From an uncultured Desulfobacter sp. (lineage in GTDB: Bacteria; Desulfobacterota; Desulfobacteria; Desulfobacterales; Desulfobacteraceae), in contig OY762069.1 in NCBI GenBank assembly GCA_963665095.1, positions 5,856,001 through 5,920,000 of the forward strand: a DNA stretch of 64,000 nt, given 5' to 3'. Positions 22,447-51,897 of the stretch are shown here, one piece after another (within the stretch, counting starts at the first letter, position 1; every line of letters begins with the position of its first letter). Under the pieces are notes generated by a model. That model was not told the origin of the DNA, ran no database searches, and was given only the letters and a program-made list of their open reading frames with translations. The position numbers and the translations under genes are program-made.

Positions 22447-22580
22447 GGGCTTCCCCGATACGTCAAATGACAGGTTACGCTTTACCGTACATTGTATTCT
22501 CACATGTATAAACGCCTTTTTTCAATACGTCTGTCTGATTTGTGTATGTAATTGTACCATTTTGTAGGGCCGGACCAGAG

Positions 22581-22662
22581 CTGAGATACAATTGGATACA
22601 ATCAGGTACACAAAGACAACAGACCCCGGCTGAAAAACCCCTTACTATCCGCCCATTGATTT
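22581..22662 (+). promoter_or_regulatory. Promoter with three TACA repeats at 10-bp spacing (RstA-box-like)
   Basis: TACA at 22587, 22597 and 22607, followed by ACAGACCCC..TTACTATCCG.CCATTGATTT; homologous to 37321..37404. Confidence 0.7.
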
Positions 22663-22687
22663 GAAAACCCCAGAAAGGAGAAAAACA

Positions 22688-23671
22688 ATGGGATCATTAA
22701 AAGGCGGGTCAATTTTTCTGATTATAATGCTGATTCCGGTGCTGGCCCTGGCCGGATCAAGCCAGGAAACCAATAAACACCAGGAAAACGATGAAAACGG
22801 ATTTTTCGGCAGCATTCTTATCGGCGGCGGCGTTGCAACGGGAAAACCCAGTGGATTAGAGGTGGTGGATGACAACAAAAAAATCAGCACACTGGATGAA
22901 AGGTCTGACCGGCAGAACCGGGACCTTCTTTTAATTATGGGAGAGCTGGGCTATGAATTTGCTTCCACAGGCACCAGGATTTCACTGAGCAACCAGAAAA
23001 GTGAAAAATCTTTTGTCGACCTGGTTGTGGCGCAGCCCCTGGAGGATATAGGCACTGTGCGTGCTTCCTTTGGGTTCGGAAAGGAAGATGTATGGGCAGA
23101 TCCCTATGTCACGGGCGTGGACCGCCGGGAAGCGGATGAAGAATCATACAACCTGAAGCTGGAATGGGAAGAGATCCTGGGGTCTGGTTTTTTTGCCGCC
23201 CTGAAGCTGAGTAGCATAGAGGTGGACCATGATCTGATTGGTGAGCGGTACCAGGAGCTGAAACGGGACGGACAGATAGTGGCGGCAGAGATAGGGTATG
23301 TTTTTCCTGTCGGGGAAAACCAGATGATTATTCCCGGTTTTGACATTGAAGTTCAGGACCGGGACGGTGAAAGCAATTCATGTAAAAAGGCCGGGGTCTC
23401 TTTGTCCCATATTATTGAATTTGACAGGTGGCACTTTTTAACCAGCCTTGGCGTGGGCAAAAGGGATTTTGACAAGACCCACCCGATTTTCCATAAAACC
23501 CGGAAGCAGACCCAATATGAATTGAGCCATTTTGTTACCTATTCCCGGCCCTTTAACTGGAAGGGTTGTTTCCTTCAAGGCCTTGTGGCCTATAGCAGGG
23601 CTGATGCCAATATTGATTTTTTCAAAAAGGATGAACTGACCATCGGTGCAGGCATGGGTTACGAATTCTGA
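22688..23671 (+). CDS. Outer-membrane beta-barrel protein (DUF2860-like)
   Basis: Signal peptide, beta-strand pattern, WADPYVTG, C-terminal GMGYEF. Confidence 0.75.
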   Translation: MGSLKGGSIFLIIMLIPVLALAGSSQETNKHQENDENGFFGSILIGGGVATGKPSGLEVVDDNKKISTLDERSDRQNRDLLLIMGELGYEFASTGTRISLSNQKSEKSFVDLVVAQPLEDIGTVRASFGFGKEDVWADPYVTGVDRREADEESYNLKLEWEEILGSGFFAALKLSSIEVDHDLIGERYQELKRDGQIVAAEIGYVFPVGENQMIIPGFDIEVQDRDGESNSCKKAGVSLSHIIEFDRWHFLTSLGVGKRDFDKTHPIFHKTRKQTQYELSHFVTYSRPFNWKGCFLQGLVAYSRADANIDFFKKDELTIGAGMGYEF

Positions 23672-24000
23672 TCTGCGACAACTGCTTTGTGCCTGCGCCA
23701 AAACGGCTTTTGAGGATATGAGCGTCTCGCATCACCCAGGATAGACAACATTTTGAACAATGAAGGCCTAAGCGTCAGCACCGGTTTAGCAGGCGTTGCT
23801 CAAAAACAGGTGTACTGGTAGTCAGGGAGAATTCCGCCTGCGTGTCCTGTTTTGCCATGACCACCTTTTCCTAGGAGGATGGAATTCGGGTGACAGAATA
23901 CCATTTCTTTTTTAATAAAAATTTGAATTGGCAGGAGCTGGCTCCCCTGGGATACACGTAATATTGCTCGCCGGTTTGATGATTTCAAAAGAGTGGACGT

Positions 24001-24062
24001 ACAGGGATAATCTGGAGAGCAACTGCTTGAAAAACGGAGTTTATCAGACAAGTAGTCCTCGC
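24001..24062 (+). repeat. Cassette-boundary repeat, copy A (degenerate)
   Basis: ACAGGGATAATC..TTGAAAAACGG..AAGTAGTCCTCGC. Confidence 0.55.
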
Positions 24063-24266
24063 CTTAAAAGTCTCGGTTTGGCTGCCGAATTTTTCATATA
24101 AACTCACTTAAAAACGCAAATGATTTAAAACGTATGCTGTTCTGATGGCGGCTTAGCGTGTACAATTAATTAGAATAACGCTTTTAATAATAAGTATAAT
24201 CCGGGAGGGGTACCTTATTTAAATGTAAGCGGTTAAGCAAGATGCCCCCGGAATATTATAAAAAAT

Positions 24267-25322
24267 ATGGGAGACAGATTAATGGCCGGGAACACACCGC
24301 AAGAAACGACACTATCCAAAGGGCAGTTCCTGGTCTATCAGGATGAAGACGGTCGGCTTAAGTTAGATGTCCGGCTTGAGGATGAATCTGTATGGTTAAC
24401 CCAGCAGCTAATGGCAGATCTGTTTCAAAGTTCAAAGCAGAACATCAGCCATCATATTAATTCAATATATGAAGAAGGTGAACTGGCACCAGAGGCAACT
24501 GTCAAAAAATGTTTGACAGTTCGCAGGGAAGGCAACCGGGATGTAAAACGCCTGCTGGATTATTATAATCTAGATATGATCATATCCGTTGGTTATCGGG
24601 TGAAAAGCCGCGTGGCCACCCGTTTCCGTATCTGGGCAACGGAACGGCTCAAGGAATATATTATCAAAGGGTTTACCTTGGACGATGAGCGTTTGAAAAA
24701 TCCGGATCTTCCCTTTGATTACTTTGAGGAACTGGAACGACGGATTCAGGATATACGGACATCCGAGCGCCGCTTCTATCAAAAAATTACCGATATTTAT
24801 GCTACAAGCATAGATTACGATCCCACCATGGATATCAGTATTACATTTTTCAAAACGGTTCAAAATAAGATGCACTGGGCCATCACCGGTCAGACAGCCG
24901 CTGAGATCATCCTTTCCCGTGCTGATGCGGATAAACCCAATATGGGGCTGACCAATTACCGAGGGGCAAAGGTCCGCAAGCAGGACGTTGCCATTGCCAA
25001 AAATTACCTCAATGAGGACGAGTTGGCAGCTTTGAATAACCTGGTTGAACAATACCTTATTTTTGCACAGGGCCAGGCCATGCGCCGTATTCCCATGTAT
25101 ATGAAGGACTGGATTAAAAAGCTGGATGGTTTTCTCTCGATCAATGATCGGGATATTCTGAACCATGCGGGGAAAATTTTCCATGAAGCGGCAAAGCAGA
25201 CGGCTGAAAATGAGTATAAAAAGTTTCATGCCCGGCGTTTGCTCTATTCAAAAAATGAACTGAGCGACTTCGATAAGGCGGTAAAACAAATAGAAAACTC
25301 AAAGAAAATAAAAGACAGATAA
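24267..25322 (+). CDS. RhuM-family protein
   Basis: VWLTQQLMADLF, YNLDMIISVGYRV, ATRFRIWAT, IRTSERRFYQKITDIYA, IAKNYL. Confidence 0.9.
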   Translation: MGDRLMAGNTPQETTLSKGQFLVYQDEDGRLKLDVRLEDESVWLTQQLMADLFQSSKQNISHHINSIYEEGELAPEATVKKCLTVRREGNRDVKRLLDYYNLDMIISVGYRVKSRVATRFRIWATERLKEYIIKGFTLDDERLKNPDLPFDYFEELERRIQDIRTSERRFYQKITDIYATSIDYDPTMDISITFFKTVQNKMHWAITGQTAAEIILSRADADKPNMGLTNYRGAKVRKQDVAIAKNYLNEDELAALNNLVEQYLIFAQGQAMRRIPMYMKDWIKKLDGFLSINDRDILNHAGKIFHEAAKQTAENEYKKFHARRLLYSKNELSDFDKAVKQIENSKKIKDR

Positions 25323-25444
25323 TGACAACCTCATCATTTTTGATGTTTGAATACTCCTGAATTACAGGGAGAGTCTTGGGGCTTTCACCCGTCTGCAAGT
25401 CGAACCTTGTTTTGGAGATAGTCCGCACCCCATACAAACAGGCT

Positions 25445-26488
25445 TCAATCTATCCCTTCAATTTTGCCTTGCTTTAGTTGTTTTATCACCTTATCAAAAT
25501 CGCTTTCAAACAGACGATCCTGAACAATACGGTATTTTTCAAATTCGCTTTCGGCATGGGCTCTGGCCATCCTGGCCGTTGCCTTTCCTGGATCCTGCAA
25601 AATTTCCCGATCGTCGAATGCCAGAAACATATCCAGCCGCTTTGCCCAGTCTTCCATGGTCATGGGAATTTGCCGCCTGGCCCGTTCTTCGGCCAGATCC
25701 AGATATGCATTGACAATGCGCCCCAAGGATGCCAGTTCCTCTTTGTTCAAATAGTTTTTTGCGACCCTCACGTCTGTTTTTACAATCTTGCCGTCCGGGG
25801 CCTTTTCCCATGTTGACAGCCCCATATTGGTTTTCGCACTGTCGGCCCGCTGCATAATCAGCTCGGCAGCTGTATGGCCGTGGATGGCAAAATGCAGTTT
25901 GTTCTGCACCCTGGCAAAAAAAGATTGGGTTGTGGGCGCGTCTTTGTTGTAATCAATGCTGGTGGCGTAAATGTCGGTAATTTTTTGGTAAAAACGGCGC
26001 TCACTGAGCCGGATCTCCCGAATTTCCGCAAGCAGGTGTTCAAAATAGTCCTCACCCAGAAATGAGCCGTTTTCCATGCGCTTTTTGTCCAGCACATACC
26101 CCTTTACGGCAAACTCACGCAGTACCTGGGTGGCCCACTGGCGGAACTGTGTCGCCCGAATGGAGTTGACCCGGTATCCCACCGAAATAATGGCATCAAG
26201 ATTGTAATGTTTGGTAAGATAGGATTTACCGTCTGCCGCAGTTATTCGGAATTTCCGAATAACTGAATCCGGATCCAGTTCACCGGAATCAAAGATGTTT
26301 TTTAAATGTTCGTTAATGGTTGGAATGGAGACACTGAACAATTCCGAGATCAGTTTCTGGGTCAGCCAGACCGTCTGTTCTTCATACCGGGCCTCAATGC
26401 TGTTTTCACCAGCCTGCCCGGTAAAGATCAGGAACTCGGCCGTACTGTTGCGTATTAACTGTTTTGTTTTGTCCTTATCCTGTTTCAT
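25445..26488 (-). CDS. RhuM-family protein, second paralog (convergent)
   Basis: VWLTQ, YNLDAIISVGYRV, IRLSERRFYQKITDIYA, VAKNYL. Confidence 0.9.
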   Translation of the reverse strand: MKQDKDKTKQLIRNSTAEFLIFTGQAGENSIEARYEEQTVWLTQKLISELFSVSIPTINEHLKNIFDSGELDPDSVIRKFRITAADGKSYLTKHYNLDAIISVGYRVNSIRATQFRQWATQVLREFAVKGYVLDKKRMENGSFLGEDYFEHLLAEIREIRLSERRFYQKITDIYATSIDYNKDAPTTQSFFARVQNKLHFAIHGHTAAELIMQRADSAKTNMGLSTWEKAPDGKIVKTDVRVAKNYLNKEELASLGRIVNAYLDLAEERARRQIPMTMEDWAKRLDMFLAFDDREILQDPGKATARMARAHAESEFEKYRIVQDRLFESDFDKVIKQLKQGKIEGID

Positions 26489-26532
26489 GACAGCTCCTTG
26501 GCCGATGTTTTTTGATGTTCATCCTATATATA

Positions 26533-26817
26533 TCAATCGATATATCCATGTTCCAGAAAGCTGTAATGGCCTTTAGGACTGAAAATAATATGATCCAGAA
26601 CGGCAATGCCCAGGGTTTTGCCTGCCTCCTGGAGCTGCCGGGTCAGTTTGATATCGGCCCGGCTCGGGGTCATGTCTCCCGACGGATGGTTATGGGCCAG
26701 GATCACCGCCGAGGCCCGATCGGTTATGGGATCGGCAAACACCTCTCTTAGGTGAACCGGGGCCTGGTCCACAAGACCGATAGAGACCACAGCAAGCAAA
26801 AAATTAATCGGGGTCAT
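26533..26817 (-). pseudogene. RadC-like JAB domain, N-terminally truncated
   Basis: VHLREVF, VILAHNHPSGD, IAVLDHII; lacks the preceding Glu-bearing strand. Confidence 0.8.
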
Positions 26818-27064
26818 ACGCCTCTCCTTCCCAGTCGCTCACTGCAAAACATGTAGCTGGCCGGTTCCGATTTTTCCAAACGTAATTCCATGAAAAAAAC
26901 AAGACATAGGCACAACGGTTTTGCCAGTTAACCCCAGTTGAACTGATTATCATCATTGTTGAATAAAAAGTAAAGAAATTCAAACCGGCCTTTTTGCGTT
27001 AAACGTTGGTATCTTAAAAGCCAGACATGGTTATTGGAGAAATATCAGGCGTTGTCCGGCTTTC

Positions 27065-27142
27065 TCCAAAAGCAATGAATCACAGATAGTCTATGGCAAT
27101 TGTCTATTGAAAAACAAAACCGATCCCATAAGTAGTCCTCAC
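27065..27142 (+). repeat. Cassette-boundary repeat, copy B (degenerate)
   Basis: TCCAAAA..GAATCACAGATAGTC..TTGAAAAAC..AAGTAGTCCTCAC. Confidence 0.6.
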
Positions 27143-27177
27143 TTCAAACGCCCTATAAAAAAAAGCTCGTTCGTGCT

Positions 27178-27498
27178 TTATGCTTTAAGTCTGTAATCAA
27201 GGATATTGGGAGATCTTTGAAGTAAATCAAGAAGAACCCTTGTCGAGCCAGTTGGCTGTCTTTTTCCTTGCTCCCACTGTCGTATTGAAGACGGACTTAC
27301 ATTTAACAATTTGGCAAAAACCGTCTGACTTACGTTCAATGTTTCCCTGATTTCTTTTATTTGGTGCGTAGATAGCTGTACTTCAGGAATGGTAACACCC
27401 AGTGAGTTTAACTCTTTTTCAGTAAAAGAGGTTTTAAAGCCTGAATTCATCATATCCTGGACAGTTTCACCGATTGCTTTTTTAATTGAATCCCTCAT
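27178..27498 (-). CDS. XRE/HTH antitoxin (HigA-like)
   Basis: IKEIRETLNVSQTVFAKLLNVSPSSIRQWEQGKRQPTG; directly downstream of the toxin. Confidence 0.88.
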   Translation of the reverse strand: MRDSIKKAIGETVQDMMNSGFKTSFTEKELNSLGVTIPEVQLSTHQIKEIRETLNVSQTVFAKLLNVSPSSIRQWEQGKRQPTGSTRVLLDLLQRSPNILDYRLKA

Positions 27499-27499
27499 G

Positions 27500-27868
27500 T
27501 TATTCCTCCAAGTCAAACAAAACGTTTTCTGCTATTAATTTTTCAATTTGACGGGCATCCATTGTCATCAAATCAGAGCCCAGCTTTTTGAAATAGTGTA
27601 ATTCTGCCTTGTCTATATTGGTTCTTTCATTTTTGCCAAATCCATACAGAAATATAGTTTTGTCCTCTTTTTTATATGCAATTATTGTCCTGAATCCTGA
27701 ACTTTTCCCTTGTCCTTCCCTGTTTACACGCACGTTAAACAGGTTGCTGCCTAAATTTGCCGCAGAGAGCCCTTTCTCTAAATTCCCAACAGCTTCAATG
27801 AGATGATGATTTTCCAAACTCATCTTCTTTGCCCATTTCTTAAACCATTTTGTGCATAATTTTTTCAT
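27500..27868 (-). CDS. RelE/ParE-family toxin (HigB-like, toxin-first order)
   Basis: TKWFKKWAKK, GQGKSSGFRTI, FLYGFGKNERTNI. Confidence 0.85.
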   Translation of the reverse strand: MKKLCTKWFKKWAKKMSLENHHLIEAVGNLEKGLSAANLGSNLFNVRVNREGQGKSSGFRTIIAYKKEDKTIFLYGFGKNERTNIDKAELHYFKKLGSDLMTMDARQIEKLIAENVLFDLEE

Positions 27869-27984
27869 AAACAACTATAACTCTTTGTGATACACTTTTC
27901 AAGTATTTGTACACACCTTGTTGTGAAATTATGGTGGGACTAAGTGGACAGGTCCGAATATGATACAACGACAGCTCTATACTG

Positions 27985-28048
27985 ACAGGGAAAGTCGATG
28001 GTCGTCTTCCATTTGAAAAAGGGTCCTTTGTTTGGAGGTAGTCTTCAC
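27985..28048 (+). repeat. Cassette-boundary repeat, copy C
   Basis: ACAGGGAAAGTC..GTCTTCCATTTGAAAAAGGG..TTGTTTGGAGGTAGTCTTCAC. Confidence 0.8.
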
Positions 28049-29512
28049 ACCAAAATAATTCGGTTTGACCTTTCCGGCGCTCGTATCTCAAAAAGCAGCC
28101 GGGTTAATCGGCCGCAGGGGAGACCCGGTCTCGACCCAGGTTCTTGCTTTTATACAAAGCTCGGTCGGCCCGCTCCACCAGTTCGGCCGCTGTCGAACCG
28201 GAATCATTTGACTTGCGGCAGGCCACGCCTAAGCTCATGCTGACCCGTCCAAGTTCGTTGGCCGGATGTTCCAAAGAGGCGGAGGTGATAGCCTGTCTGA
28301 CCCGCTCAGCCTGGCTGATGGCTTGGTCCAGGTCGGCATCGGGCAGCACTATGACAAACTCCTCACCTCCATAGCGGGCCACAAAATCGGTCGCCCGCTG
28401 GCAGGCCTCGCGAATCAATTTGGCCACCTCGACCAGACAAGCGTCGCCCGCCTGGTGGCCGAGCTGATCGTTGTACAACTTGAAGTGGTCGATATCGCAC
28501 ATGATCACGCTGATGGGTTTGCCACTCCTGTTGGCGCTTTGGAATTCCCGTTCCAGAACGTTGTCGAAATAGCGGCGGTTGGGCAATCCGGTGAGCCCAT
28601 CGTGCCGTGAAAGGGATTCCAGCTCCCGGTTGGCCCGGGCAAGTTCGGCGGTGCGCTTGGAAACCTGGTCTTCCAAACGCTCCCTTTCAGTCTCGTTCCT
28701 GAGCAATAATTCTTCCTGATAGGCGCTCTTTTGCTCCTGCAACAGCTTGATGCGGTAGGCCAGGGCCTGCGAGAAGACAATCATTTCCAGCAGGGAGCCG
28801 CCCAGAAAGGAATAGCGGGTAAAGAGATTGTAGGGCAACAGTCCCTGGTTCAGGGTCGACAAAATTGACACCCCGACAAAATACCAGATGGTTCCCATGA
28901 GGTAGTACTTTCCCATCTCAAAGCGCCGGTACGTGGCATGGATGGCCAGGAACAATTGTAGCAGCATCAATGGCATGGCCAAGATCACCAGGAACTTGTA
29001 GTAGGTGGTATCCAGAAAGACCATAATCGACAACAGTGCCATCAAACCGGCCAGACTCAGCAAAACCCTGTCCAATCGTGGCAAACGCTGGGCCGTCTTC
29101 AGGATTTCCCTGGTGAAAAGCAGCAAAGAGCTCTGAGCCAAGGTCGTGAAACCGCCGAAACGGTTGAAATCCTCTGCCGAAATACCAGCCAGCACGGCCA
29201 GGCCGCTGTAGCTTGTCACTGTTGAGTCGCATTTTATCCTGACTTAAATTTTCTAATTATTTTGAACAGATTAAATCTTTTCCATATTATTTAAGACAGC
29301 TACAGAAGTCGCTGCGCTCCTTCTCAGTAGGTTTTTAAGGCATAGGCAGAACAGCTTGAATAAAGCAGAAAGGGGAAGCAGGTAATCCCCACTTCCCCTG
29401 GCGCATTATTCAATGCTGCCTGCTTCCGGCTATCCCTTACCAGGTTGCTCCTCAGCAGAGCCCGGCTCCGTTTCACCGAAATCGTAATATTCTGCTCTAT
29501 GGCTGTTTTTTC

Positions 29513-30322
29513 TTAAAAAATTTCCGATGAAGCAATGCGGACATGCTCTGCAGATACCGTCATTGATTTTTCTGCCGCAGCAGCAATCAATGAGCCTCTG
29601 GCAAGATTATTCGCCTTTCGTAAAAGGCCGCCGGAGCCTTGATGAATCGCAGTCACCGCCTGGTCAGAAAAAAAGTTGGTGTCAACACCGCATAGTTTTA
29701 AATGATGGATCAGGTAAGTTTTCATTCCAGCCACATCCAGACCATCCAGATGGCTTTTAGCCACAATCCTGGATGCAAACGGGATTGACGTCCGGTACTG
29801 AAGCTTATCTATCAATGTCGGCTGACCTGCAAGGATCACAGGCAGCCAGGGCATGGCGTCTTTTTCAAATTGAACCAGGGTGTGAAGTTCGGCAAAGACT
29901 TCCATGCGAAGCAGAGATGCCTCATCTATAATCAAAACGGTTTTGATCTTTTTTCCCAGGACGAATTCACGTATTTCATTTTTAATAATGGAGATCATAA
30001 CAGCGCGGGACGTCGATGTCCGCTCTATGCCCAGTTCTTCAACAATCTGCCGGTAAAGTTCCATGATGGAACCGCTTGAGGCCGTAACATAAAAGACTTT
30101 GTATTCCGAAGGGTGTAGGGATGAGGCGGCATACCTTAAGGCGGTGGACTTTCCGCTGCCCACATCCCCTGTGATAACCGCACTGCAGCCAAGTCTTAAG
30201 GAATAATCAATCCGATTTTTAACGCCCGAGACCTCCGGGGTGACCAGGATATCATTGATTTCTATCTGCGCCGGGAAGGCCTCCCTATATAAGCCAAAAA
30301 AGGTACGATACATTTCACTCAT
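29513..30322 (-). CDS. ExeA-like AAA+ ATPase (transposition helper)
   Basis: GDVGSGKST, LIIDEA, ILAGQP; overlaps the transposase stop. Confidence 0.9.
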   Translation of the reverse strand: MSEMYRTFFGLYREAFPAQIEINDILVTPEVSGVKNRIDYSLRLGCSAVITGDVGSGKSTALRYAASSLHPSEYKVFYVTASSGSIMELYRQIVEELGIERTSTSRAVMISIIKNEIREFVLGKKIKTVLIIDEASLLRMEVFAELHTLVQFEKDAMPWLPVILAGQPTLIDKLQYRTSIPFASRIVAKSHLDGLDVAGMKTYLIHHLKLCGVDTNFFSDQAVTAIHQGSGGLLRKANNLARGSLIAAAAEKSMTVSAEHVRIASSEIF

Positions 30323-31575
30323 AACAGTTGCCCTCCCTTGTAATTTGAGGGTTCAGGCATAATCCGGATATCATTTTCGTTCCAGCGGTGCCGCTTGACC
30401 CGACAGTTCACAGCAAGGTCCACCGGGGTTAACAAGCCATAAGACTTTGCTTTATAGATAACTTCAGCCTGCAAAGGGGTGTCCTCATGGTACTTTACAT
30501 CCACATGTCTGCCGATCAGCGCAACCGGGGCCTCAAACATGTTGCCGTCAAGGGTGATGGTTCGGTCCTTTGCCACCTTGCGCCGGGCGGTTTTGCGGAA
30601 GTGGTCTTTCAGATCCGGTGGGGCGGTACGGATGCACTCCATGGCCGAGGTAAATCTTTTAAACGGTGATTCGCCTGTGGAGCTGTGTTTACGCTGATGG
30701 TACTCATTATGAAGCCACTTCTCAAATGCCCCATTCAGATCATCCAGGGTCTTACCTGTAAATCTTTGCAGAAACTGAAGCCGAACCGTTCTGAACCAGC
30801 GCTCGATTTTACCTTTCCCCTGGGGCTTATATGGCCTTGCATGGATTAAAGCGATGGACAGAGACGCTGCTACATATTTTAAATGATGGGATCTGAACGC
30901 AGGACCGTTATCTACATACAGCTTGCGGGGAAGCCCACGGCTCAAAAAAGCCTGCTCCAGCACCATAAGATAGGTCTTCAGATTCTCAGATAAATAAAAA
31001 CCTGCAGCCGTAACCAGCCTGGAATGATCGTCCATAATGGCAATCAGGTACGTTTTTCTTTGCTTATCCTGAACCAGGACTGTAGGGCCGTGCATGACGT
31101 CGCTTTGCCACATATCATTGGGGTGCGGGGCTTCAAACTTTCTTCTATCCTCTGGCCGGGCCGTGTTCATTAGCCCCCGGCCGCGTAAAAAACGGTATAC
31201 ACTGGATGGACTGTATGTCTGGCATGTAGTTTTTTGAAGTGAACAGATCAATGTATCGACTGTCGCATCAGGCTGGTCTAACCGGAGTTTGATTAGTTGA
31301 GATGCAGTCTCGTCATCGAATACCCTTGATTTTCCCTGGTCTGAACGGTCTTTGGGGTAAAGAGACTCTATTCGACCGTTATACTGCCGGACCCATCCCA
31401 GAATCGTACTTCTGGAAAGCCTGGTCCTTCCAGAATACGGGATGGACCATTTGCGGGCGCACTTCTGCTGTAAAATTCGTTCTTTTTCACCGTAATCAAA
31501 ATTTGTTCCGGTCACAAATTCACAAATGACCCCAAACCTGAACACGGCAACCTCTTTTTTCTGATTTTCTGTCAT
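30319..31575 (-). CDS. DDE-type integrase/transposase (rve, Mu-like C-terminus)
   Basis: WQSDVMHG, MDDHSR, YVDNGPAF, PQGKGKIERWFRTV, YHQRKHSSTG. Confidence 0.93.
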   Translation of the reverse strand: MTENQKKEVAVFRFGVICEFVTGTNFDYGEKERILQQKCARKWSIPYSGRTRLSRSTILGWVRQYNGRIESLYPKDRSDQGKSRVFDDETASQLIKLRLDQPDATVDTLICSLQKTTCQTYSPSSVYRFLRGRGLMNTARPEDRRKFEAPHPNDMWQSDVMHGPTVLVQDKQRKTYLIAIMDDHSRLVTAAGFYLSENLKTYLMVLEQAFLSRGLPRKLYVDNGPAFRSHHLKYVAASLSIALIHARPYKPQGKGKIERWFRTVRLQFLQRFTGKTLDDLNGAFEKWLHNEYHQRKHSSTGESPFKRFTSAMECIRTAPPDLKDHFRKTARRKVAKDRTITLDGNMFEAPVALIGRHVDVKYHEDTPLQAEVIYKAKSYGLLTPVDLAVNCRVKRHRWNENDIRIMPEPSNYKGGQLL

Positions 31576-31678
31576 ACTTCCTCCTTAAAATTTGGTTCTA
31601 AGGGCTTGTATGACAGTATGATCCTTCGGTAAATCACAGCCTTCGGTAGGGTGGTTTAACCCTGATCCAGCCCCATGG

Positions 31679-32125
31679 TTAAATTGAACTGGTAACCGGG
31701 ATTTTACCCATACCGATTAGCTTGATAAAACCAGCAACCACACCTTTGTCCCAACTGTTGGACAGGTAGGCCGCTATATTTCGTTTCAATGCAGTAAACC
31801 AAAAATGCTGTCGACTCCAGGAGAGTTCCGGCAGATACCGGTCTGTGTATAGACGACTCATAATGCTGGTAAGGATTTGCCAGATACTGGCCTGGAACCT
31901 CTTGAAAAAACCATATGGCTTCAATTTGAATACGGTTTTGCAATAGGGGCAGCGATATCGCTTCAAATACACCCCTTGATCAAATCCATCAAAAAAGGAG
32001 AGTACAAAGCCGTGTCCCCACAGCCTGGAGTCGTTGCAATGTGGACATCGTGACGGTTTTGGCCATGTAAAATTTTTGCCCTGCTTGAAAATTTGCTTGA
32101 TATCAGCTTTGACCTTTATTATCAT
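31679..32125 (-). CDS. Zn-ribbon accessory protein of the transposon (DUF6431-like)
   Basis: CPHC..LWGHG..RYRCPYC; first gene inside the element. Confidence 0.72.
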   Translation of the reverse strand: MIIKVKADIKQIFKQGKNFTWPKPSRCPHCNDSRLWGHGFVLSFFDGFDQGVYLKRYRCPYCKTVFKLKPYGFFKRFQASIWQILTSIMSRLYTDRYLPELSWSRQHFWFTALKRNIAAYLSNSWDKGVVAGFIKLIGMGKIPVTSSI

Positions 32126-33246
32126 TTTTATGGTTGTTTTGGGATTTTATAAATCCCGGTCTTAAGGGCGAGGCTCTGCAAAGCTTTTCGCCCTTTTCAT
32201 TTTTGTCAGAATGCTTTGATCAGAACCTGTACAGGATAATTTGAGAAAAATGGAACTTTGTCAATTTAATATGAAAAATTTGGCGGGTTTTTGTTCAGAT
32301 TATTTCGGGAATCTACAGTCACGAACAGGCCAAACAATGTTGCGTGGGCTACATAAAACAGGTAGACCCTTTCCCTGAGTGAAAAAAACAGGAATAGGTT
32401 GTATAAAAGCAGCGCCCCTAAGGCTCCCAGATAGAGGCTGTTCAAAATGTTCTGCAGACGATCCTGCCGGTGGAACTGATTTTTACTGGAGACTGTAATC
32501 CCAGACGTGGTCAGGTTGTATTCGGAATTTACCATCATATAGATGGTCTTGGTTTGACCCGGCTGAAGTTTCAACTCGAACATGGGAAGCCGACTGTCGA
32601 CCTGTCGTTGCGATATAGGCACCACAAGACCGTTATGTTGTTGTTGCCAGACGCCGTTCTCCCGGGTGAAGAGGTCGGCATTCTGCATGTGAACTTCATC
32701 AAACCCGACAATGCGTATCACCGGTTTGTCTGTCCCATTTGCAAGACGGAAGCCCAACCAGATATTGGCACGCTCGGCAGGTATGACAAACCGCGAAGGG
32801 TGTATACGATCCTGGACAGGTAGAGCTGCCACTTGGTCGATGGTCAACGAACTGGTTTCATCCATTGTAATAAATACTGGAAAATCGACCAATGTTCGAG
32901 ACAGCTCGCCCACCTGATAAACCGGCAGCTGTGCCTGGGAGGCCACAGGTAGGACAAAAAGCACAACACTCAGAATAAAAAGATATCGTGTGCATCGACG
33001 CATGGTGTCATTACTCCTCTGGATTTATATTAAGAGACTGTTTTTGAATCGCCCGGACGGTCCGGGTTGGCCAGCCAACTCACCCTTGGCCGTTTTTCAC
33101 AGTAAGCATTTTTTTGCTCCTGATAACCAGTATCTTTATCTCTTACCATTGGGAGAAGTCAGTTTCAAAGATTTATTGCTATCACTGATATGCGTAGGTC
33201 TCTTATCTCTAAGAATCCAAGCCCGATTTATTTGAGTTGAGTCGTG

Positions 33247-33430
33247 TCCAAAAACAACCGGAATCACAGGGATAGTCCGGGGTGGTCTTCCATACAAAAA
33301 ATGGACCTTGTTTTAGAGGTAGTCTTCACCTCTGACCCTTGATTTGATCCTCCAGATTCTCGATCCAAGTCACCAATAACAAAAGCAGTGACCGCCGCCT
33401 CAAAATTGGCTTAGGAGTTTTTAAATACCA
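33247..33430 (+). repeat. Cassette-boundary repeat, copy D (64-bp core 33266..33329 plus ~100 bp extension)
   Basis: Aligns without gaps to 34157..34321; the core also aligns to 27985..28048. Confidence 0.9.
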
Positions 33431-33545
33431 AAAGTTAACAGTGTTGAGGCTAAGAAAGTATAAGCCTTTGGATTGACAGTTTTTTTATGATATACATGAA
33501 TATATTGGCAAAAATAATCAGAACAGAGTCAAAGAGAGTAATTCA

Positions 33546-33878
33546 ATGAAACTGCCAAATGCAGAAAATGCCATAATTGATAAAGACAAAATTGAAAATT
33601 ATTGTCTTAACCTTGAACACCCTCGTGGTAAACACAAAGCAAGGGTTTTCATCAGTGTTCTTGGATTGACGGTAAAAGATTCTGAATACTTGATAGGCCG
33701 AATAAAAACAATGATAATAAAAGTAGATTGCCTAAAAGGTGAACAGGATCAATATGGTCAACGCTACACAGCCGATATCGAAATTAAATATGAATCGAAA
33801 AAAGCTGTTGTACGCACAAGTTGGATTATTAAACGAAATGAATCAAACCCAAGACTAACAACTTGTTACGTCAAATAA
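33546..33878 (+). CDS. DUF6883-like putative toxin/nuclease
   Basis: LPNAENAII..KIENYCLNLEHPRGKHKARVF..YGQRY..PRLTTCYV. Confidence 0.75.
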   Translation: MKLPNAENAIIDKDKIENYCLNLEHPRGKHKARVFISVLGLTVKDSEYLIGRIKTMIIKVDCLKGEQDQYGQRYTADIEIKYESKKAVVRTSWIIKRNESNPRLTTCYVK

Positions 33879-33892
33879 AGGCAGGTAGAATA

Positions 33893-34108
33893 ATGAAAAA
33901 TAATATAAAAATTTATGATGTTGTAGCACTTGTTGAGAATTTATCTAAACGAGGGCTGGTGATTGGGCAAGTCGGCACGGTTGTTGAAATCCTTGATGAT
34001 GGTGTTTTTGAAGTAGAATTTTGTGATAATGACGGAAGGACTTATGAATGTCTGGCATTACGATCCGATCAATTGATGCCTCTTCATTATTCTCCTGTAG
34101 CTGCTTGA
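33893..34108 (+). CDS. DUF4926-like putative immunity/antitoxin protein
   Basis: YDVVAL..GLVIGQVGTVVE..FEVEFCDNDGRTY. Confidence 0.78.
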   Translation: MKNNIKIYDVVALVENLSKRGLVIGQVGTVVEILDDGVFEVEFCDNDGRTYECLALRSDQLMPLHYSPVAA

Positions 34109-34156
34109 TTTTGATGGCAAGGCTATATCTAAAGAATCGGTCAAGTCTATTTCAAA

Positions 34157-34321
34157 ACAGGGATAGCCAGAGGTTGTCCTCCATAGAAAAAACGGATCTT
34201 GTTTTAGAGGTAGTTTTCACCTTAGTTCCTTGATTTGATCATCCAGATTTTCGATCCAAGTCACTAATAACAAAAGTAGCGAACGCCGATTCAAGATAGG
34301 CTTGGGAGTTCATAAATACCA
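34157..34321 (+). repeat. Cassette-boundary repeat, copy E (core plus extension)
   Basis: Direct repeat of 33266..33430. Confidence 0.9.
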
Positions 34322-34602
34322 TAAATCAACTCCTTGGAATTACTAATTTTGCTCAACGATATCACGAGAATACATGTATTCTAAAATCGATACAAAATGT
34401 TTGATTCTAAAACTAAAAAAAACGATCTCCACCGTTTTTTCTTTTCATTTCTATCAAAATAAATTGTCGGTATTGTTCATAAACAAACAAAAATTGAAAG
34501 CGTTCGTTTTGACTTTATAGATGGCTCTTAAAATCAATTGACACGGCAGAAATCAATGACAATATACATTGAATTTATGTAATTAAAGAGTACAATTTAA
34601 AA

Positions 34603-35100
34603 TTACATCACGTACGATGAACTTCCCAAAAAGCCATTATATGTGATTTCAAAGCTATCTTTCTTGTAATAGCCTGATAGTTTAGATCTTTTTTGGAATC
34701 CGAAATGATCAAACAATCTTTTAAATTGATACTCACGTGCTGAAGACACAGTGATGAGAGGCTTCTCGGTGTCAAGGATAGCAAATGAATTTTTTATTAG
34801 GTCCTTACCGATCCCTTGATTTTGGAACTTATCCATGACACGGAGAGTACAGATTTTCTTTTCATTCGTCGTGTTTTTTAAAATTGCAAGGCCTGATATA
34901 TAGTCATCTGAAACCGTAAAAAGAATCTCCCTCATACCGATTGCTACGTCATTAATCACCTTTTTATAGTACCAATCAAAAAATAGTGGGTATTCCTGCT
35001 CAAGTTGTGAAATAGTCTGATAAATCGAATCACAAAAGAAATTAAAGAGAGGCTTGCTATGAATTACACTTGATATTTTTATCAATTTAATATTTTCCAT
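34603..35100 (-). CDS. GNAT-family acetyltransferase
   Basis: KICTLRVMDKFQNQGIGKDL (motif A), LFDHFGF; 1-nt overlap with the upstream stop. Confidence 0.88.
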   Translation of the reverse strand: MENIKLIKISSVIHSKPLFNFFCDSIYQTISQLEQEYPLFFDWYYKKVINDVAIGMREILFTVSDDYISGLAILKNTTNEKKICTLRVMDKFQNQGIGKDLIKNSFAILDTEKPLITVSSAREYQFKRLFDHFGFQKRSKLSGYYKKDSFEITYNGFLGSSSYVM

Positions 35101-36215
35101 TATTCCCCTCCTACTGGTGACGTTACCATTGCTCGGGATTTATTAACAGTCTTTTTTCCATTTTTCTGTGGTGCGTGCTCTTTATTGTCTTTTCTTACGT
35201 TTTCGACCGTCGCGGGTTCATCTTGAATGCCTTTCAGGATATATGAAGAAGCCAAATTGAAACAGATACTCATAAATCCGATAATTGCAACATATAAACA
35301 GATCGTTTTAAAATTCGATCTATGGTATTTCATCTTCACCAATGTATTGAAAGAGTCTATTGGTTTTGCATCTTCAACATTTTTAACCTTTTCGGACCAA
35401 TGATAAGCGATGATATTTTCTAAATTATATTCTTCACCGATATACCTCATCCAAAGCTCAGGTTCCAAAGTCCGGCATGTAAAATTAATATGCTGAGACT
35501 CAAAATCTTCTGTGGCATCACGCATCAGTAGAAAGTGGATTTTTTGTATTTTAAATTCATTATTTTCACCAATATGTTCGGCCAAACTATGGTGATAGTT
35601 TCTTTTTTCATTTACCCTGAAATCTATTGTTTCCGTTTCCGTGAAGGCACTTTGGAAAAACCAATTCCTTGGCTCATGGTTGCGCTTAAAATTCGATAAT
35701 ACATCTCCTTTCAATCGAAACCGAAAATAATATTTCGAACAATGATTTCCATTATTTATTGAAGTTAGATCTATAGATAGTTTGGTCCCACCGTATACAT
35801 CTACAATTGAAATATCATTCGAATTTTCTAAAAAATCAATTGCATAAATATTAAAAAGCGTTTCATTGGAACTATTTTGAACACTACGCTGTTTGACCAC
35901 ATTACCATCATGAATATGATAATTTTCATTAAAAATCGATTTTGTTAATTCATGGTTGTCTATTAATTTAGTACCTATGTCTTCAATGTCATTTCGACTG
36001 ATTTTAAATGGGAAATGTATATTTAAGCTTGCAATACTGCTGATATTTTCTATCTTGAAACCGAAATCCAGAAAATATCTCTTTTGAGAAAAAAATAACC
36101 CTTTAAAGAAATGACCTTTTTTCGATAGTTTCCAAAAGTTTATGTGTAGATCCAGCTTTATGTCGTCATTTACATTATTGTCTTTGCGATCGAACCAAGT
36201 TGCTATTGTTTTCAT
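35100..36215 (-). CDS. Uncharacterised beta-rich protein with C-terminal transmembrane helix
   Basis: 371-aa ORF coupled to both neighbours; hydrophobic ICLYVAIIGFMSICFNLASSYI near the C-terminus. Confidence 0.8.
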   Translation of the reverse strand: MKTIATWFDRKDNNVNDDIKLDLHINFWKLSKKGHFFKGLFFSQKRYFLDFGFKIENISSIASLNIHFPFKISRNDIEDIGTKLIDNHELTKSIFNENYHIHDGNVVKQRSVQNSSNETLFNIYAIDFLENSNDISIVDVYGGTKLSIDLTSINNGNHCSKYYFRFRLKGDVLSNFKRNHEPRNWFFQSAFTETETIDFRVNEKRNYHHSLAEHIGENNEFKIQKIHFLLMRDATEDFESQHINFTCRTLEPELWMRYIGEEYNLENIIAYHWSEKVKNVEDAKPIDSFNTLVKMKYHRSNFKTICLYVAIIGFMSICFNLASSYILKGIQDEPATVENVRKDNKEHAPQKNGKKTVNKSRAMVTSPVGGE

Positions 36216-36598
36216 AAGATTAATCCAGATTCAAGATATTTGAATGATTGAGGAGGACAGAAGCTTTTATTCATTTTATAAGGATTTATTGCCTTCTGAA
36301 ATATCGTTAACTGATTAATTTTTAATGCATATCCAATACTTATTCCATTGAAATAGTTTTGAAACTCAATTTGAGTAATCCCTGCCTCTTTTTTCGTCTC
36401 TTCCCACAATTGTCCCGGATTCTTTGATAAGTATCCCCCATAGATAAAAAAGCCAACTATTTTTTTCTCGGGAGAAGAAGAATAAATGTAGATTCTATCA
36501 ACTTCACGTTTAAAAATTCTCTTCCGATATTCGAATTTCTTTTCGCCAGTTAGAATTTTTTGTACATAAATGGGCTTTATTGATATTAGAACATCCAT
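36212..36598 (-). CDS. ASCH-domain protein
   Basis: LISIKP..ILTGEKKFEYRK (GxKxxExR), IYSSSP, PPQSFKYL. Confidence 0.9.
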   Translation of the reverse strand: MDVLISIKPIYVQKILTGEKKFEYRKRIFKREVDRIYIYSSSPEKKIVGFFIYGGYLSKNPGQLWEETKKEAGITQIEFQNYFNGISIGYALKINQLTIFQKAINPYKMNKSFCPPQSFKYLESGLIL

Positions 36599-37320
36599 AA
36601 AATTCAATTACCATAACTAAAGGAAATCTACAATTTTAATACCCAAATAGCATGTGTGAAAAATATGATACACTATGGTCACAGACGGTAATAGATGAAT
36701 ACAAAGCCTTTTGAAAACATTGAAAAAAGCTTGATATCGCATTGGGGCTTTCCGTTCTCTCTCATCGGAAACCATTATAGGTATGGATTTACCGGTATCC
36801 GGTCAAGACGAATTATCTGATACATAAAATTCTGAATGCGAGAATTGTTAAAAATACCGGTTTGAATTTTTGACAATATCGGATGCAAAATGAGGTGAAT
36901 AATTAGGAATCAAGGACCCCACAATCTGTCTATTTAGGCTCGCCAAGACATACTTCAAAGCAGCGCTCAATAACAGAAGCATTGTGGGGGATCGGTCATT
37001 TCAAATTCTCCACTGTGGACTATGTCAAAATGATACCCCACCGATAGTGGCTTCAAAACCCAGGACTATTATTAATATTGGACACTCCGAGATTACATGT
37101 TTAAAGGTTTTTTAAGTAGGGTCTGGGTTTATGCCCTATACCCATCTTCTTCCCTTTCATGGGCTTTCCTCAAAAAATCGTAAGATACGTTTTCACCTTA
37201 ACGCACATTGCATTTTCATATATATAAACGCCTTTTTTCATAACATCCGGCTGTGATTTGTGTCTTGGGTTGCCGTAAAAATATCCGGTCGGTTTTGTAT
37301 CCCCGGATTAGCCGATCAGG

Positions 37321-37404
37321 GGGCTGTGTACAATTGGTTACAAATGGGTACATAAAGCAGACAGACCCCTGATTTAAAATCCTTTACTATCCGACCATTG
37401 ATTT
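37321..37404 (+). promoter_or_regulatory. RND operon promoter with three TACA repeats at 10-bp spacing
   Basis: TACA at 37329, 37339 and 37349, then ACAGACCCC..TTACTATCCGACCATTGATTT; homologous to 22581..22662. Confidence 0.7.
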
Positions 37405-37503
37405 TAAAAAAAGCAACAAAAGAGATAGATGGTGGGATGGTTAAACAGGCAGGCTTTTCTCCCGGAGATGATGTTTAATGAGTTGACAATTTGGGGGTGA
37501 GCA

Positions 37504-38910
37504 ATGGGCAGGATGAAAAGCACGATACATAAAATACGATTACTCTTCGGGCTGGGGATTATTATTCCGGCATTGTGGCTCCAGGGCTGCGCTTCAACTT
37601 TCTCCAAGGCTCCGGCTGTGCTTCCCCGGGATATTCCCGGCACATTCGGCACATCTTCTGGCCCGGATGCCCTGCCCATTACCGCAGGGCTTCTGGACAT
37701 CATTGATTCCAACAAACTTCGCAGCCTGGTGGACGAAGCCCTGGAAAACAACCCGGATATAAAAGCTGCGGCATTCCGGCTTGGGTCCGCACGGTATCTG
37801 CTTTCAGGCCCTGCATCCCAACGATTGCCAAAGCTTTCCGCAGGATTTTCCAGTGGAAAAAGCAACCAGGAGTACAATTACACCACATTTGAACGCGACA
37901 CCCAGACCACCCATAAAATTACAGCCAATGTGAGCTGGGAAATCGATCTGTGGGGCCGGCTGGCTGACCAATACCAGGCCGCAAACCAAGAGGTCCAGGC
38001 CAAGGAGCAGGATTTTCAAAAGGCCCGGGATCTTCTGGCTGCCCGGGTGATCCAGGCATGGATACGGCAGGTGTCGGCCCGCCGGGCAAAAGCCATTGAA
38101 ACACAGCGTATTTCGGTTTTACAGCAGATTGAAGATATTTTGATCCACCGGTACCAGGACGGCATCGGCAGCCTGGACGAATATGCCGCAGCCAGAACCC
38201 GGACCCAGGTGGCCAAAGCAGATCTAAGCGCCAGAGAGGCAGATCTTGCCAATTCCATTCGCTCCCTTGAAGTCCTTCTTGGCCGATATCCACAGGGACA
38301 ATTGTCCCGGGGCCGGGACTGGCCCGCCCTTGCCCTGCCGGCGCTGGATACGCCGGCAGCGGTTCTTTTAAACCGGCCGGATATCCGGGCAGGCCTTGCC
38401 CGGGTTGACGCAGCCCGACATCAGGCCCGGGCTGCAGACAAGGCCAGGCTTCCCGGGGTCACCCTGTCCGGCGAACTGTTCCGGTCCGGGACTCGGCTGT
38501 CGGATATCGGCAGTGCCACAACCTATTGGGGACTTTTAGGATCTGTGTTCCAGCCGCTGTTTGAGGGTGGACGCCTGCGGGATGAAGCCCGGGCCGGTCA
38601 CCTTGAGGCGGATGCCGCCATCCAGGACCTTCATGCCATTGTGCTCCAGGCATTTGCCGAAATAGAAAATGCACTCACCCTGGAAAAGGAACTGGCAAAT
38701 CAGACAAAGGCCCTTGAAATCGCTTTCATTGAGTCTGAAAACAGCAGCCGTTACTTTGTGGACCGGTATCGCCAGGGCCTGGACAATATCCAGACACTGC
38801 TCATTGCCAAAGAGCAGGAGATCACCGTGAAACTGCAACTGAACCAGGCCCGGGCCGACCGGCTGAGCAACCGGGTGGATCTGGCAATCGCCATAGGCAA
38901 AAGCATTTGA
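37504..38910 (+). CDS. RND efflux outer membrane factor (NodT/TolC-family lipoprotein)
   Basis: Lipobox LQGC, ALENNPDI, SWEIDLWG, RPDIRA. Confidence 0.92.
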   Translation: MGRMKSTIHKIRLLFGLGIIIPALWLQGCASTFSKAPAVLPRDIPGTFGTSSGPDALPITAGLLDIIDSNKLRSLVDEALENNPDIKAAAFRLGSARYLLSGPASQRLPKLSAGFSSGKSNQEYNYTTFERDTQTTHKITANVSWEIDLWGRLADQYQAANQEVQAKEQDFQKARDLLAARVIQAWIRQVSARRAKAIETQRISVLQQIEDILIHRYQDGIGSLDEYAAARTRTQVAKADLSAREADLANSIRSLEVLLGRYPQGQLSRGRDWPALALPALDTPAAVLLNRPDIRAGLARVDAARHQARAADKARLPGVTLSGELFRSGTRLSDIGSATTYWGLLGSVFQPLFEGGRLRDEARAGHLEADAAIQDLHAIVLQAFAEIENALTLEKELANQTKALEIAFIESENSSRYFVDRYRQGLDNIQTLLIAKEQEITVKLQLNQARADRLSNRVDLAIAIGKSI

Positions 38911-50668: not shown

Positions 50669-51897
50669 TGAAAAACTTTTTTAACAGGCAATACACCATC
50701 CTGGCCCTGCTGTTCATGGTCAGGATGATTCCAACGGTATTTTTTATGATGGCCTTGCCCGTCGTCCTCCGTCTTGAGGGATTTTCCCTGGATGTCATAG
50801 CGCTTTTACAGCTTGCCGGGGTGCCCTATCTTTTAAAATTTGTCTGGGCGCCCCTGCTGGACCGCAACAGCGGTGCCAGGAACCATTACAAACAATGGGT
50901 CTGGTGGTCATGCCTTGGCTGCGGACTGCTGCTGCTGGTATTGGGCACCCTGGATTTAAGGTCCCATTTCCGGTTAGCCGCCACCCTGATCATGGTCATT
51001 TCGGTTATCACCTCCACCCTGGATATTGCCATTAACGCCCTTTACATCAAACTTCTTCCCTTTGAAAAAAGGGGGACTGGATCAAGCACCAAGATGCTGG
51101 GGCTGAACCTGGGCAGTATCCTGGGAAGTGGTTTTTTTCTCCTGGTTTACAACCATTTTGGCTGGCAGGCCTGCATATGGGGCATCGGGGCTGTCATATT
51201 ATGCTGTCTTGGTTTAACACCCCGGCTTGAAGAGGCAGAACAGGCGTTGTTCAAAGAAACCAACACCGTTAGATGGCCGGCCATTTTCTCCTTTTTCAAG
51301 ACAAAGGGCATGGGGCGCTGGACCGCGCTGATCGTTTTAAACTCCCTGGGCCCGGCTGCGGCATTCTTCATGATGAAGCCCTTTCTGGTGGACCGGGGCG
51401 TGGATACGGACGTCATTGCCTTTCTGGTGGGATTCTACGGCATGAGCGTGGCGGCTCTGGCAGCCATGGCCACAGGCAGCCGCCGTTTCCAGAAATACCT
51501 GTTGCAGCGCAGGCGGGCCTATATCAACAGTATTTTTCTCAACGCCGTGGCCGTGGGCCTGTTCGTCCCCATCGTCCGGTCCACTGAGTCAACGGTTTTG
51601 CTTTACCTTGCCGTGGCCCTGCTCAACGCCGCCATTACCCAGGCTTCGGTTGTCAGCGCAACCCTGGTCATGGATTTTTCCCGCAAGGATCTGGCAAGCG
51701 TTGACTATGCCTTGCAAATGACCGGCATTCACATCGGAGGCCTGGCCATGGCCTCTTTGAGCGGCATGGTCGTGGCGGCCATGGGATACTTTCATTTTTT
51801 CCTTGGCCTGGCCCTTTTTTCCCTACTGATGATTTTGGTCAGCATAGGTCTGTTCCGGGGCGACTGGATTTTCTCAGGCGTGCATGATCACTCCTGA
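50668..51897 (+). CDS. MFS transporter (AmpG/RhtX/FptX/YbtX-like)
   Basis: PYLLKFVWAPLLDR motif, ~12 TM helices. Confidence 0.88.
   Translation: MKNFFNRQYTILALLFMVRMIPTVFFMMALPVVLRLEGFSLDVIALLQLAGVPYLLKFVWAPLLDRNSGARNHYKQWVWWSCLGCGLLLLVLGTLDLRSHFRLAATLIMVISVITSTLDIAINALYIKLLPFEKRGTGSSTKMLGLNLGSILGSGFFLLVYNHFGWQACIWGIGAVILCCLGLTPRLEEAEQALFKETNTVRWPAIFSFFKTKGMGRWTALIVLNSLGPAAAFFMMKPFLVDRGVDTDVIAFLVGFYGMSVAALAAMATGSRRFQKYLLQRRRAYINSIFLNAVAVGLFVPIVRSTESTVLLYLAVALLNAAITQASVVSATLVMDFSRKDLASVDYALQMTGIHIGGLAMASLSGMVVAAMGYFHFFLGLALFSLLMILVSIGLFRGDWIFSGVHDHS

Follow-up and report, generated by a model that had tools for sequence, protein, structure and literature searches.

A family-wide repeat in Desulfobacteraceae as a probable junction of exchangeable gene cassettes, with a candidate Xer-like recombinase

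Introduction

The textbook example of a device by which bacteria stockpile and shuffle single-gene cassettes is the integron. We have analysed a stretch of 64,000 nucleotides from an uncultured Desulfobacter sp. (assembly GCA_963665095.1, contig OY762069.1, positions 5,856,001 to 5,920,000; the window, below, means this whole stretch), in which small gene modules are separated by a direct repeat of about 70 bp. We consider the repeat, with a probability of roughly 0.7, to be the junction of exchangeable cassettes and, as double-stranded DNA, the likely target of a single clade of small Xer-like tyrosine recombinases, which would cross over in a 7-bp spacer.

The arrays are like integrons in that co-oriented sites surround small exchangeable cassettes rich in toxin-antitoxin (TA) and candidate defence genes, in that there are arrays without a nearby enzyme, comparable to clusters of attC sites lacking integron-integrases (CALIN), and in that the candidate enzyme is a tyrosine recombinase. 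The integron site attI1 has an inverted core plus direct repeats, as has the present site (PMC8946536). Unlike in integrons, however, the present sites are of one sequence-conserved type without the attC hairpin, the candidate enzyme scores far below the cut-off for IntI and its gene rides inside a cassette, and the cargo is found in both orientations instead of being co-oriented with the array.

The dif site has XerC and XerD arms around a 6-bp spacer. In Acinetobacter, pdif/dif modules carry adaptive and TA genes between short Xer-type sites, as here (PMC6449649), but the present site is not dif-like, having a 7-bp spacer and a distal repeat, and the system would have a dedicated recombinase clade instead of the host XerCD, and chromosomal arrays. 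The TnpI-irs systems of Tn4430 and Tn5401 resemble it in having an inverted core and a direct repeat upstream of the gene for a small tyrosine recombinase (PMC7157771), and differ from it in that there is here one distal repeat rather than two, and many cassette-bounding sites per genome. Among integrative and mobilizable elements and their cis-mobilizable derivatives (IMEs and CIMEs), int-bearing units integrate into the site of a resident unit and decay to passive units, much as here (PMC5704250); the present arrays are unlike these in having no target gene, no transfer module that we could see, units of 0.6-5 kb and dozens of dispersed arrays.

We did not find a description of the system in the literature; the search reached few subscription papers and no supplements, so a prior mention is possible. 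In the available part of the tyrosine-recombinase classification (PMC8138268) there is no fitting subgroup, and IntDes is described there with an arm-binding domain and as confined to Desulfovibrio. As far as their accessible text goes, PMC3414803 covers recombinase-in-trio (RIT) elements and PMC6449649 dif modules, and neither covers the present system, and the main text of PMC3711429 nowhere mentions an integrase or recombinase.

Results

Each copy of the repeat resembles a site for a tyrosine recombinase. The cores of such sites are known to consist of two inverted elements on either side of an asymmetric spacer, here of 7 bp, and the consensus of 227 distinct sites is GAcTn-ACAGGGA-wAGTC, followed by a variable stretch with a central A-tract and by a second GTAGTC about 47 bp on. 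The two inverted elements, GAcT and wAGTC, would be the half-sites and the distal GTAGTC a direct repeat; the 7-bp spacer, within the general range of 6-8 bp and the place where the exchange is bracketed, is ACAGGG(A/G) in 178 of the 227 sites. The left half-site GA-T is present in 53 of 101 mutually unrelated upstream flanks, against 1.9 expected, and going by these flanks it is not inherited together with the core. A first reading of the window from its letters alone, the sequence-only reading, had taken the TAGTC submotifs for probable protein-binding sites and had seen no attC, dif or CRISPR structure in the repeat. Both views hold, with the submotifs now as putative half-sites around the spacer: RNAalifold predicted no conserved base pair in 70 sites (one strand folded), there is no hairpin, and the 7-bp spacer and the GAcT/wAGTC half-sites are not those of dif, for which a search gave three imperfect matches. 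A structured RNA was discarded as an explanation, the repeat being without consensus pairs and without an Rfam family (none in 23000-38000 beyond two chance matches), and so was the 3' end of a gene (a VQG-stop reading), the open frames being short.

What the sites have on either side points to exchange between them. Among 201 sites with enough flank, identical sites having been collapsed, 75 pairs share the upstream sequence, 66 share the downstream sequence and none share both. The 52 pairs linked upstream at 85% or more have a random core identity (0.60/0.57 vs 0.59/0.56), and the 58 pairs linked downstream at the same threshold share the core (0.70/0.70), their upstream sequence being random. 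Of the sites, 157 have a 7-bp spacer, with 12 upstream and 17 downstream families; in these, position -8 tracks the upstream cassette (0.78 vs 0.27 for random) and positions +11 to +19 track the downstream one, and the exchange is therefore bracketed around the spacer, from -8 to about +8 to +11.

Cassette content varies among relatives, which the first reading had wanted checked: the same cassettes recur beside different neighbours, with ends that are sharp at the site, as integron cassettes do in different arrays. Cassettes without int, among them RelE-HTH, RhuM, VapBC-like, GFA, a DUF2442 pair and ParDE-like, recur at 85-98% where the neighbours on either side are different, and the ParDE-like one occurs twice in the window's own genome, at 98%. 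Most cassettes are single-gene or TA units of 0.6-5 kb, and TA pairs, parts of restriction-modification systems and small enzymes are frequent among the cargo. In 59 intervals, 68 open reading frames (ORFs) lie on one strand and 61 on the other; these are mechanical ORFs and some of them are antisense shadows.

An integrase family that accompanies the repeat was the second thing to be looked for, and it exists: a clade of Xer-like tyrosine recombinases is physically tied to the site in relatives. Clustering of the ORFs near 178 sites yielded a phage-integrase-family protein, whose gene starts 120-250 bp past the spacer and reads away from the core. Recombinase loci were next gathered by a protein search that was blind to the site (loci from other genomes carry the letter L below, and the window's own genome is G000). 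In a quick tree of 64 rows the site-linked clade comprises 21, with a support of 99 in the Shimodaira-Hasegawa-like approximate likelihood-ratio test (SH-aLRT). A site lies within 400 bp upstream of the recombinase in 10 of the 14 scorable rows of this clade (7 unscorable) and in 0 of the 32 scorable rows of the other clades (9 unscorable, as are two basal rows). Of the four rows that miss, two do have a site farther off, 440-550 bp upstream and behind a small ORF, which brings the count to 12 of 14; a third has a site of the TTAATAA class 3.6 kb upstream, and the leader of the fourth is truncated. Whole units of site, int, cargo and site could be mapped in L331, L336, L244, L276, L274 and L285, and the maps also show int-bearing units in tandem within one array, and TA cassettes that retain a remnant of int at their head. 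U2, a conserved upstream flank, is similar to the flank on the int side of the site. Sites are present in every one of the 17 family genomes that have a recombinase match of at least 76%, against 88 of 142 overall. Comparison of sequences shows both the exchange at the spacer and the linkage of enzyme and site.

R-K-HxxR-H-Y is the catalytic motif of tyrosine recombinases, and its residues can be read in P0002, a full-length protein of 278 aa from a natural in-frame copy. P0002 reached no NCBIfam cut-off; its best model was the archaeal XerA (121 of 220 bits), on TIGR02249 (IntI) it scored 49.2 bits against a cut-off of 265, and it could not be aligned to the local IntI. The nearest solved relatives of the recombinase are archaeal XerA and XerD. 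A structure of P0002 predicted without an alignment had a predicted local distance difference test (pLDDT) score of 36 and was not used. Among 43 genes that have a run of A near codon 20, 41 have a start that is not in frame with the body, the shift going in both directions, which suggests slippage at the run. Rows of a distant clade have A9 runs as well, and no cassette site.

The clade copies that G000 contains are broken: one at 5655681-5656157 adjoins a TTAATAA site. There are also an internally deleted recombinase copy between two sites (744361-745190), a C-terminal piece of uncertain clade (5998899) and a sister-clade copy with a second frameshift (320226-321040). As only broken clade copies are present, the array of the window looks orphaned and is probably frozen until an intact copy arrives. 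This agrees in part with the sequence-only reading, which had thought of a recombinase acting in trans; trans stands, but the recombinase need no longer be called unknown, since a specific Xer-like clade is linked to the site in relatives.

G000 (6.9 Mb, one contig) has 26 copies of the repeat at E<0.02, the same number as counted with model R1, and the reversed genome gave no match below E 0.34. The first reading would have been abandoned if the repeat were scattered genome-wide regardless of gene boundaries. The copies are indeed dispersed, but they respect genes: none of the 26 lies inside an ORF of at least 120 aa, as against 129 of 150 random positions. A same-strand neighbour is found within 6 kb for 18 of them, and all 12 pairs of adjacent sites are co-oriented, as are 59 of 63 pairs in other loci. 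A model of the TTAATAA class, to which six sites of G000 had contributed, matched the genome 11 times and the reversed control never. At 1827309 and 1833420 of G000 lie the two parts of a single site, which about 6 kb of nested insertion sequences have divided at the spacer.

Used as a DNA query, the repeat had matches in 21 of 24 genomes from the genus and in none of 16 from other families of the order. Model R1 found sites in 87 of 141 genomes of the family Desulfobacteraceae and none in 150 genomes drawn from the rest of the phylum. An exact pattern occurs at 89 loci in genome contigs; among 80 listed loci, most are titled as Desulfobacter, Desulfobacula, Desulfospira, Desulfotignum and other Desulfobacteraceae or Desulfobacterales, some are labelled Proteobacteria only, and a few have unrelated labels, which may be chance or misbinned. 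The single local hotspot that was first proposed has to give way to many dispersed arrays across the family.

In the window, the five copies of the first reading (A to E) are all where it had placed them, on one strand, and a sixth copy on the same strand was added. A profile of 68 sites, all absent from G000, gives the six copies 25-63 bits; the top score in 100 shuffled windows was 10.9 bits. All six are on the plus strand, and there is one inverted variant besides. Site A (23996..24063) has the core GACGT-ACAGGGA-TAATC and the distal GTAGTC repeat (43.9 bits), the sixth site, which had been missed, is at 25359..25428 (GAATT-ACAGGGA-GAGTC, 41.4 bits), and site B (27077..27142; GAATC-ACAGA-TAGTC, 25.2 bits) has a spacer of 5 bp rather than 7, from which it is predicted to be recombination-defective. 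Site C is at 27980..28048 (TACTG-ACAGGGA-AAGTC, 42.9 bits), site D at 33261..33330 (GAATC-ACAGGGA-TAGTC, 62.8 bits) and site E, with degenerate half-sites, at 34152..34221 (TCAAA-ACAGGGA-TAGCC, 39.0 bits). It had been feared that A and B would do no better than shuffled sequence; their scores, set against the 10.9 bits, put them far above chance. The inverted variant, with the spacer TTAATAA, is at 37011-37080 on the minus strand, and its flank begins with TGTCTATTTA at 36927 (the whole is 36927..37080). Conserved flanks of about 100 bp accompany the sites, all on the plus strand: U1 (23898..23995), which begins at an ATACCAT motif and precedes the first site of many arrays, D1 (33331..33431), which ends in TAAATACCA and occurs also beside the recombinase-upstream site in relatives, and a second D1 (34222..34322) ending in TAAATACCAT.

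One module per interval had been claimed initially, but the first interval consists of two cassettes, divided by the sixth site, which lies between the rhuM genes. The cargo of cassette 1 is a RhuM-family protein (24267..25322, plus strand; PADLOC candidate PDC-S05), and the cassette recurs at 89-91% in L199 (27-1363 of 1363 bp) and L207 (256-1363). Cassette 2 has a second RhuM-family protein (25445..26488) and a RadC/JAB fragment (26533..26817), both on the minus strand. Cassette 3 (27178..27874, minus strand), with a helix-turn-helix (HTH) antitoxin (27178-27516) and a RelE toxin (27500-27874), recurs almost end to end at 92-93% in L082, L193 and L198. Cassette 4, between C and D, does contain the GGDEF gene that had been read there, a 7TMR-DISMED2/7TM/GGDEF gene (28104..33003, minus strand), but also a 3.1-kb insertion sequence (IS) that splits this single gene; without it the cassette is 2178 bp with one open frame of 605 codons, and the uninterrupted cassette is present in contigs of three of four runs. 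The IS (29215..32317, minus strand) has a 148-aa ORF, an IS481-like DDE transposase and an ExeA-like AAA ATPase, a 5-bp duplication and no obvious terminal inverted repeat, and its 14 copies in the genome are near-identical. Judged by these sequences it is a later insertion and not part of the cassette machinery, and as a mover of cassettes it was rejected: it is missing from the same cassette in three of the four runs, and 11 of its 14 copies lie more than 10 kb from any site. Cassette 5 carries DUF6883 (33546-33878) and DUF4926 (33863-34108) genes (33546..34108, plus strand), so that both cargo orientations are present within the window.

A low-GC block with GNAT, a 371-aa protein and an ASCH-like protein (34603..36607, minus strand) lies outside the same-strand array. 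It had been counted as one more module, but no same-strand copy closes it; the site at its end is the inverted TTAATAA variant. The 371-aa protein in its middle has no family match and is unannotated; the PADLOC candidates in the block are PDC-M11A (weak) and PDC-M11B (strong). Similar promoter regions of about 200 bp bracket the island (22475-22667 and 37191-37409), each before an outer-membrane gene, the left one preceding also a two-component regulator gene. Further along, a major facilitator superfamily gene is duplicated at 98-99% (50772-51838 and 61677-62742), the second copy being frameshifted.

Other mobile genes and repeats were seen near the sites or among relatives of the recombinase. 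A RIT trio has inserted repeatedly at the TGGTATTTAA/GTCTAT motif that ends D flanks (L059:5850-9800, L076, L075, L061, L199 and G000 5632036-5633230), and at least two of these loci have a pair of additional ORFs upstream of it (a 179-aa zinc-finger-like and a 102-aa CHC2 protein). G000 has two integron integrases (910166-911560 and 3348309-3354689), one intact and one IS-interrupted, with an attC-like sequence upstream of the second. A small cysteine-rich ORF (CxxC...CxxC) recurs between site and recombinase promoter or in cassettes (L075:10624-11430, L293, L294, L202), and may be an accessory or directionality factor. The sister clade (L220-L225, L233, L299, L305 and G000 320226-321040) is found as compact, IS-like elements that have the inverted ends ATGGTATGAAAAAAC ... 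GTTTTTTCATAGACAT and lack the cassette site. In a distant-clade locus (L268:2649-5029) three copies of a different direct repeat of about 160 bp separate single genes, none directly abutting the recombinase gene.

Discussion

The alternative that real recombination sites are served by another enzyme, be it host XerC/XerD, an integron integrase or the RIT trio, with the Xer-like gene as a mere frequent passenger, would fit with the lack of a near-full-length clade copy among the matches in most site-bearing genomes. Integron integrases are widespread within the genus (21 of 25), and RIT elements adjoin sites in several loci. However, only one of 30 intI loci (L072) has a site within 1.5 kb, the other 29 being without one, and neither of the two integrons of G000 has a site, so the integron link was dropped, the more so with no attC hairpin and a mixed orientation of the cargo. 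Nor does the core, which has a 7-bp spacer and no XerD arm, suit XerCD. The RIT elements were rejected as movers since their ends join at the TGGTATTTAA/GTCTAT flank motif and not at the core. The site is moreover specific for the clade and has a near-fixed place ahead of the int promoter, and we find this explanation unlikely.

Slightly less probable still is that the arrays are fossils of small integrative elements of the IME/CIME type, which accreted in tandem and then decayed, and that passive cassettes were not moved individually. Tandem accretion and decay are known for IMEs (PMC5704250), and the int-bearing tandem units and the int remnants in cassettes are what they would leave behind, but such a history does not fit int-free cassettes that recur at high identity with different neighbours on both sides. 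That the sites are at many unrelated loci, hence without a fixed target gene, also counts against it, and no relaxase family recurred among the clustered ORFs near the sites (22 representatives annotated; oriT not sought).

We see very little room for a third explanation, a resolution site like irs of Tn4430, from a replicative transposon or plasmid, with arrays made by repeated cointegrate resolution: the layout of an inverted core and a direct repeat near and upstream of a tyrosine recombinase is matched (PMC7157771), but a Tn3-family transposase (PF01526) was not found in G000, no transposase of about 1000 aa recurred in the clustered loci, and the cassettes are short single-gene or TA units. 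The nested ends of Tn7-like or IS elements, the alternative of the sequence-only reading, could draw on the DDE transposase and the AAA ATPase found within the array, but are scarcely credible and largely refuted by the switch centring on the spacer, a point internal to the inverted core, the repeats being direct rather than inverted ends and the IS being a late arrival with ends of its own.

A number of observations weigh against exchange by the clade enzyme at the spacer. The collapse of identical sites ahead of the pair test also removed perfect orthologues, and some cassettes have swapped the entire core (G000 2767234), which indicates additional exchange by homology. No joint at a spacer was present in the assembled contigs of seven runs; contig joints linking D1, U1 and W flanks were found, with sides of 34-60 letters, and probably derive from other loci or organisms. 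Run X6, with zero cover over 34396-36843 and a 2.6-fold depth on the DUF6883 cassette, is by itself no evidence. The scored rows of the tree include near-duplicates (L241/L276/L277 and L244/L247), and kin are not independent. A near-full-length clade match (E<=1e-60) is found in only 17 of the 88 site-bearing family genomes, 71 being without, and G000 has the clade as fragments only. A weak match, of 13-17 bits and limited to the core half, is all that several of the int-proximal sites give, the site orientation is opposite in some W-type cases (L245, L310, L334, L341), and one unit in L244 is enclosed by a TTAATAA site and an ACAGGGA site. Finally, the sister clade lacks the site and has terminal inverted repeats instead, so that the recombinase family is apparently able to move without it.

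We still regard site-specific exchange by the clade as the most rational explanation, and infer excision circles, control of direction, spacer classes, control by slippage and catalysis by the clade enzyme from the arrangement of sites and genes. The enzyme would bind the GAcT/wAGTC half-sites plus the distal repeat 47 bp away, the latter perhaps controlling direction, and an int-bearing unit would be excised as a circle carrying one site. The circle could re-insert at any site with a matching spacer, and arrays would therefore grow in one orientation. Units that lose int would become passive cassettes, moved in trans only while an intact copy is present, and slippage at the A-run would keep the enzyme scarce. 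ACAGGGA and TTAATAA spacers would be separate compatibility classes, and ATGGTAT may be a third. The core of the first interpretation, accretion of TA/defence-type cassettes at a site-specific recombination site by an enzyme acting from elsewhere, is thereby kept.

The system is a new variant of recombinase-driven cassette accretion. The cassettes form a real system that spans the family, the clade is a strong candidate for its enzyme, and the whole is possibly an independent integron analogue. A further step, to which we give somewhat less than even odds, is that it is a second cassette platform independent of integrons, with a slippage-gated Xer-like recombinase travelling as its own cassette, symmetric double-stranded sites and spacer-sorted pools, and with sister clades that run parallel systems on other repeats across the sulfate reducers. 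A system with dozens of sites per genome would escape those integron searches that depend on attC or intI.

If the reading is true, bacteria would have a second, independent route to stockpile and shuffle genes, with an enzyme that is likely not an integron integrase. It would offer a small one-protein recombinase with sites of about 70 bp that are possibly programmable by their spacer, and candidate defence genes could be taken from the cassettes as from a pre-cut library. For the Desulfobacteraceae themselves, it would explain part of the turnover of TA and defence genes.

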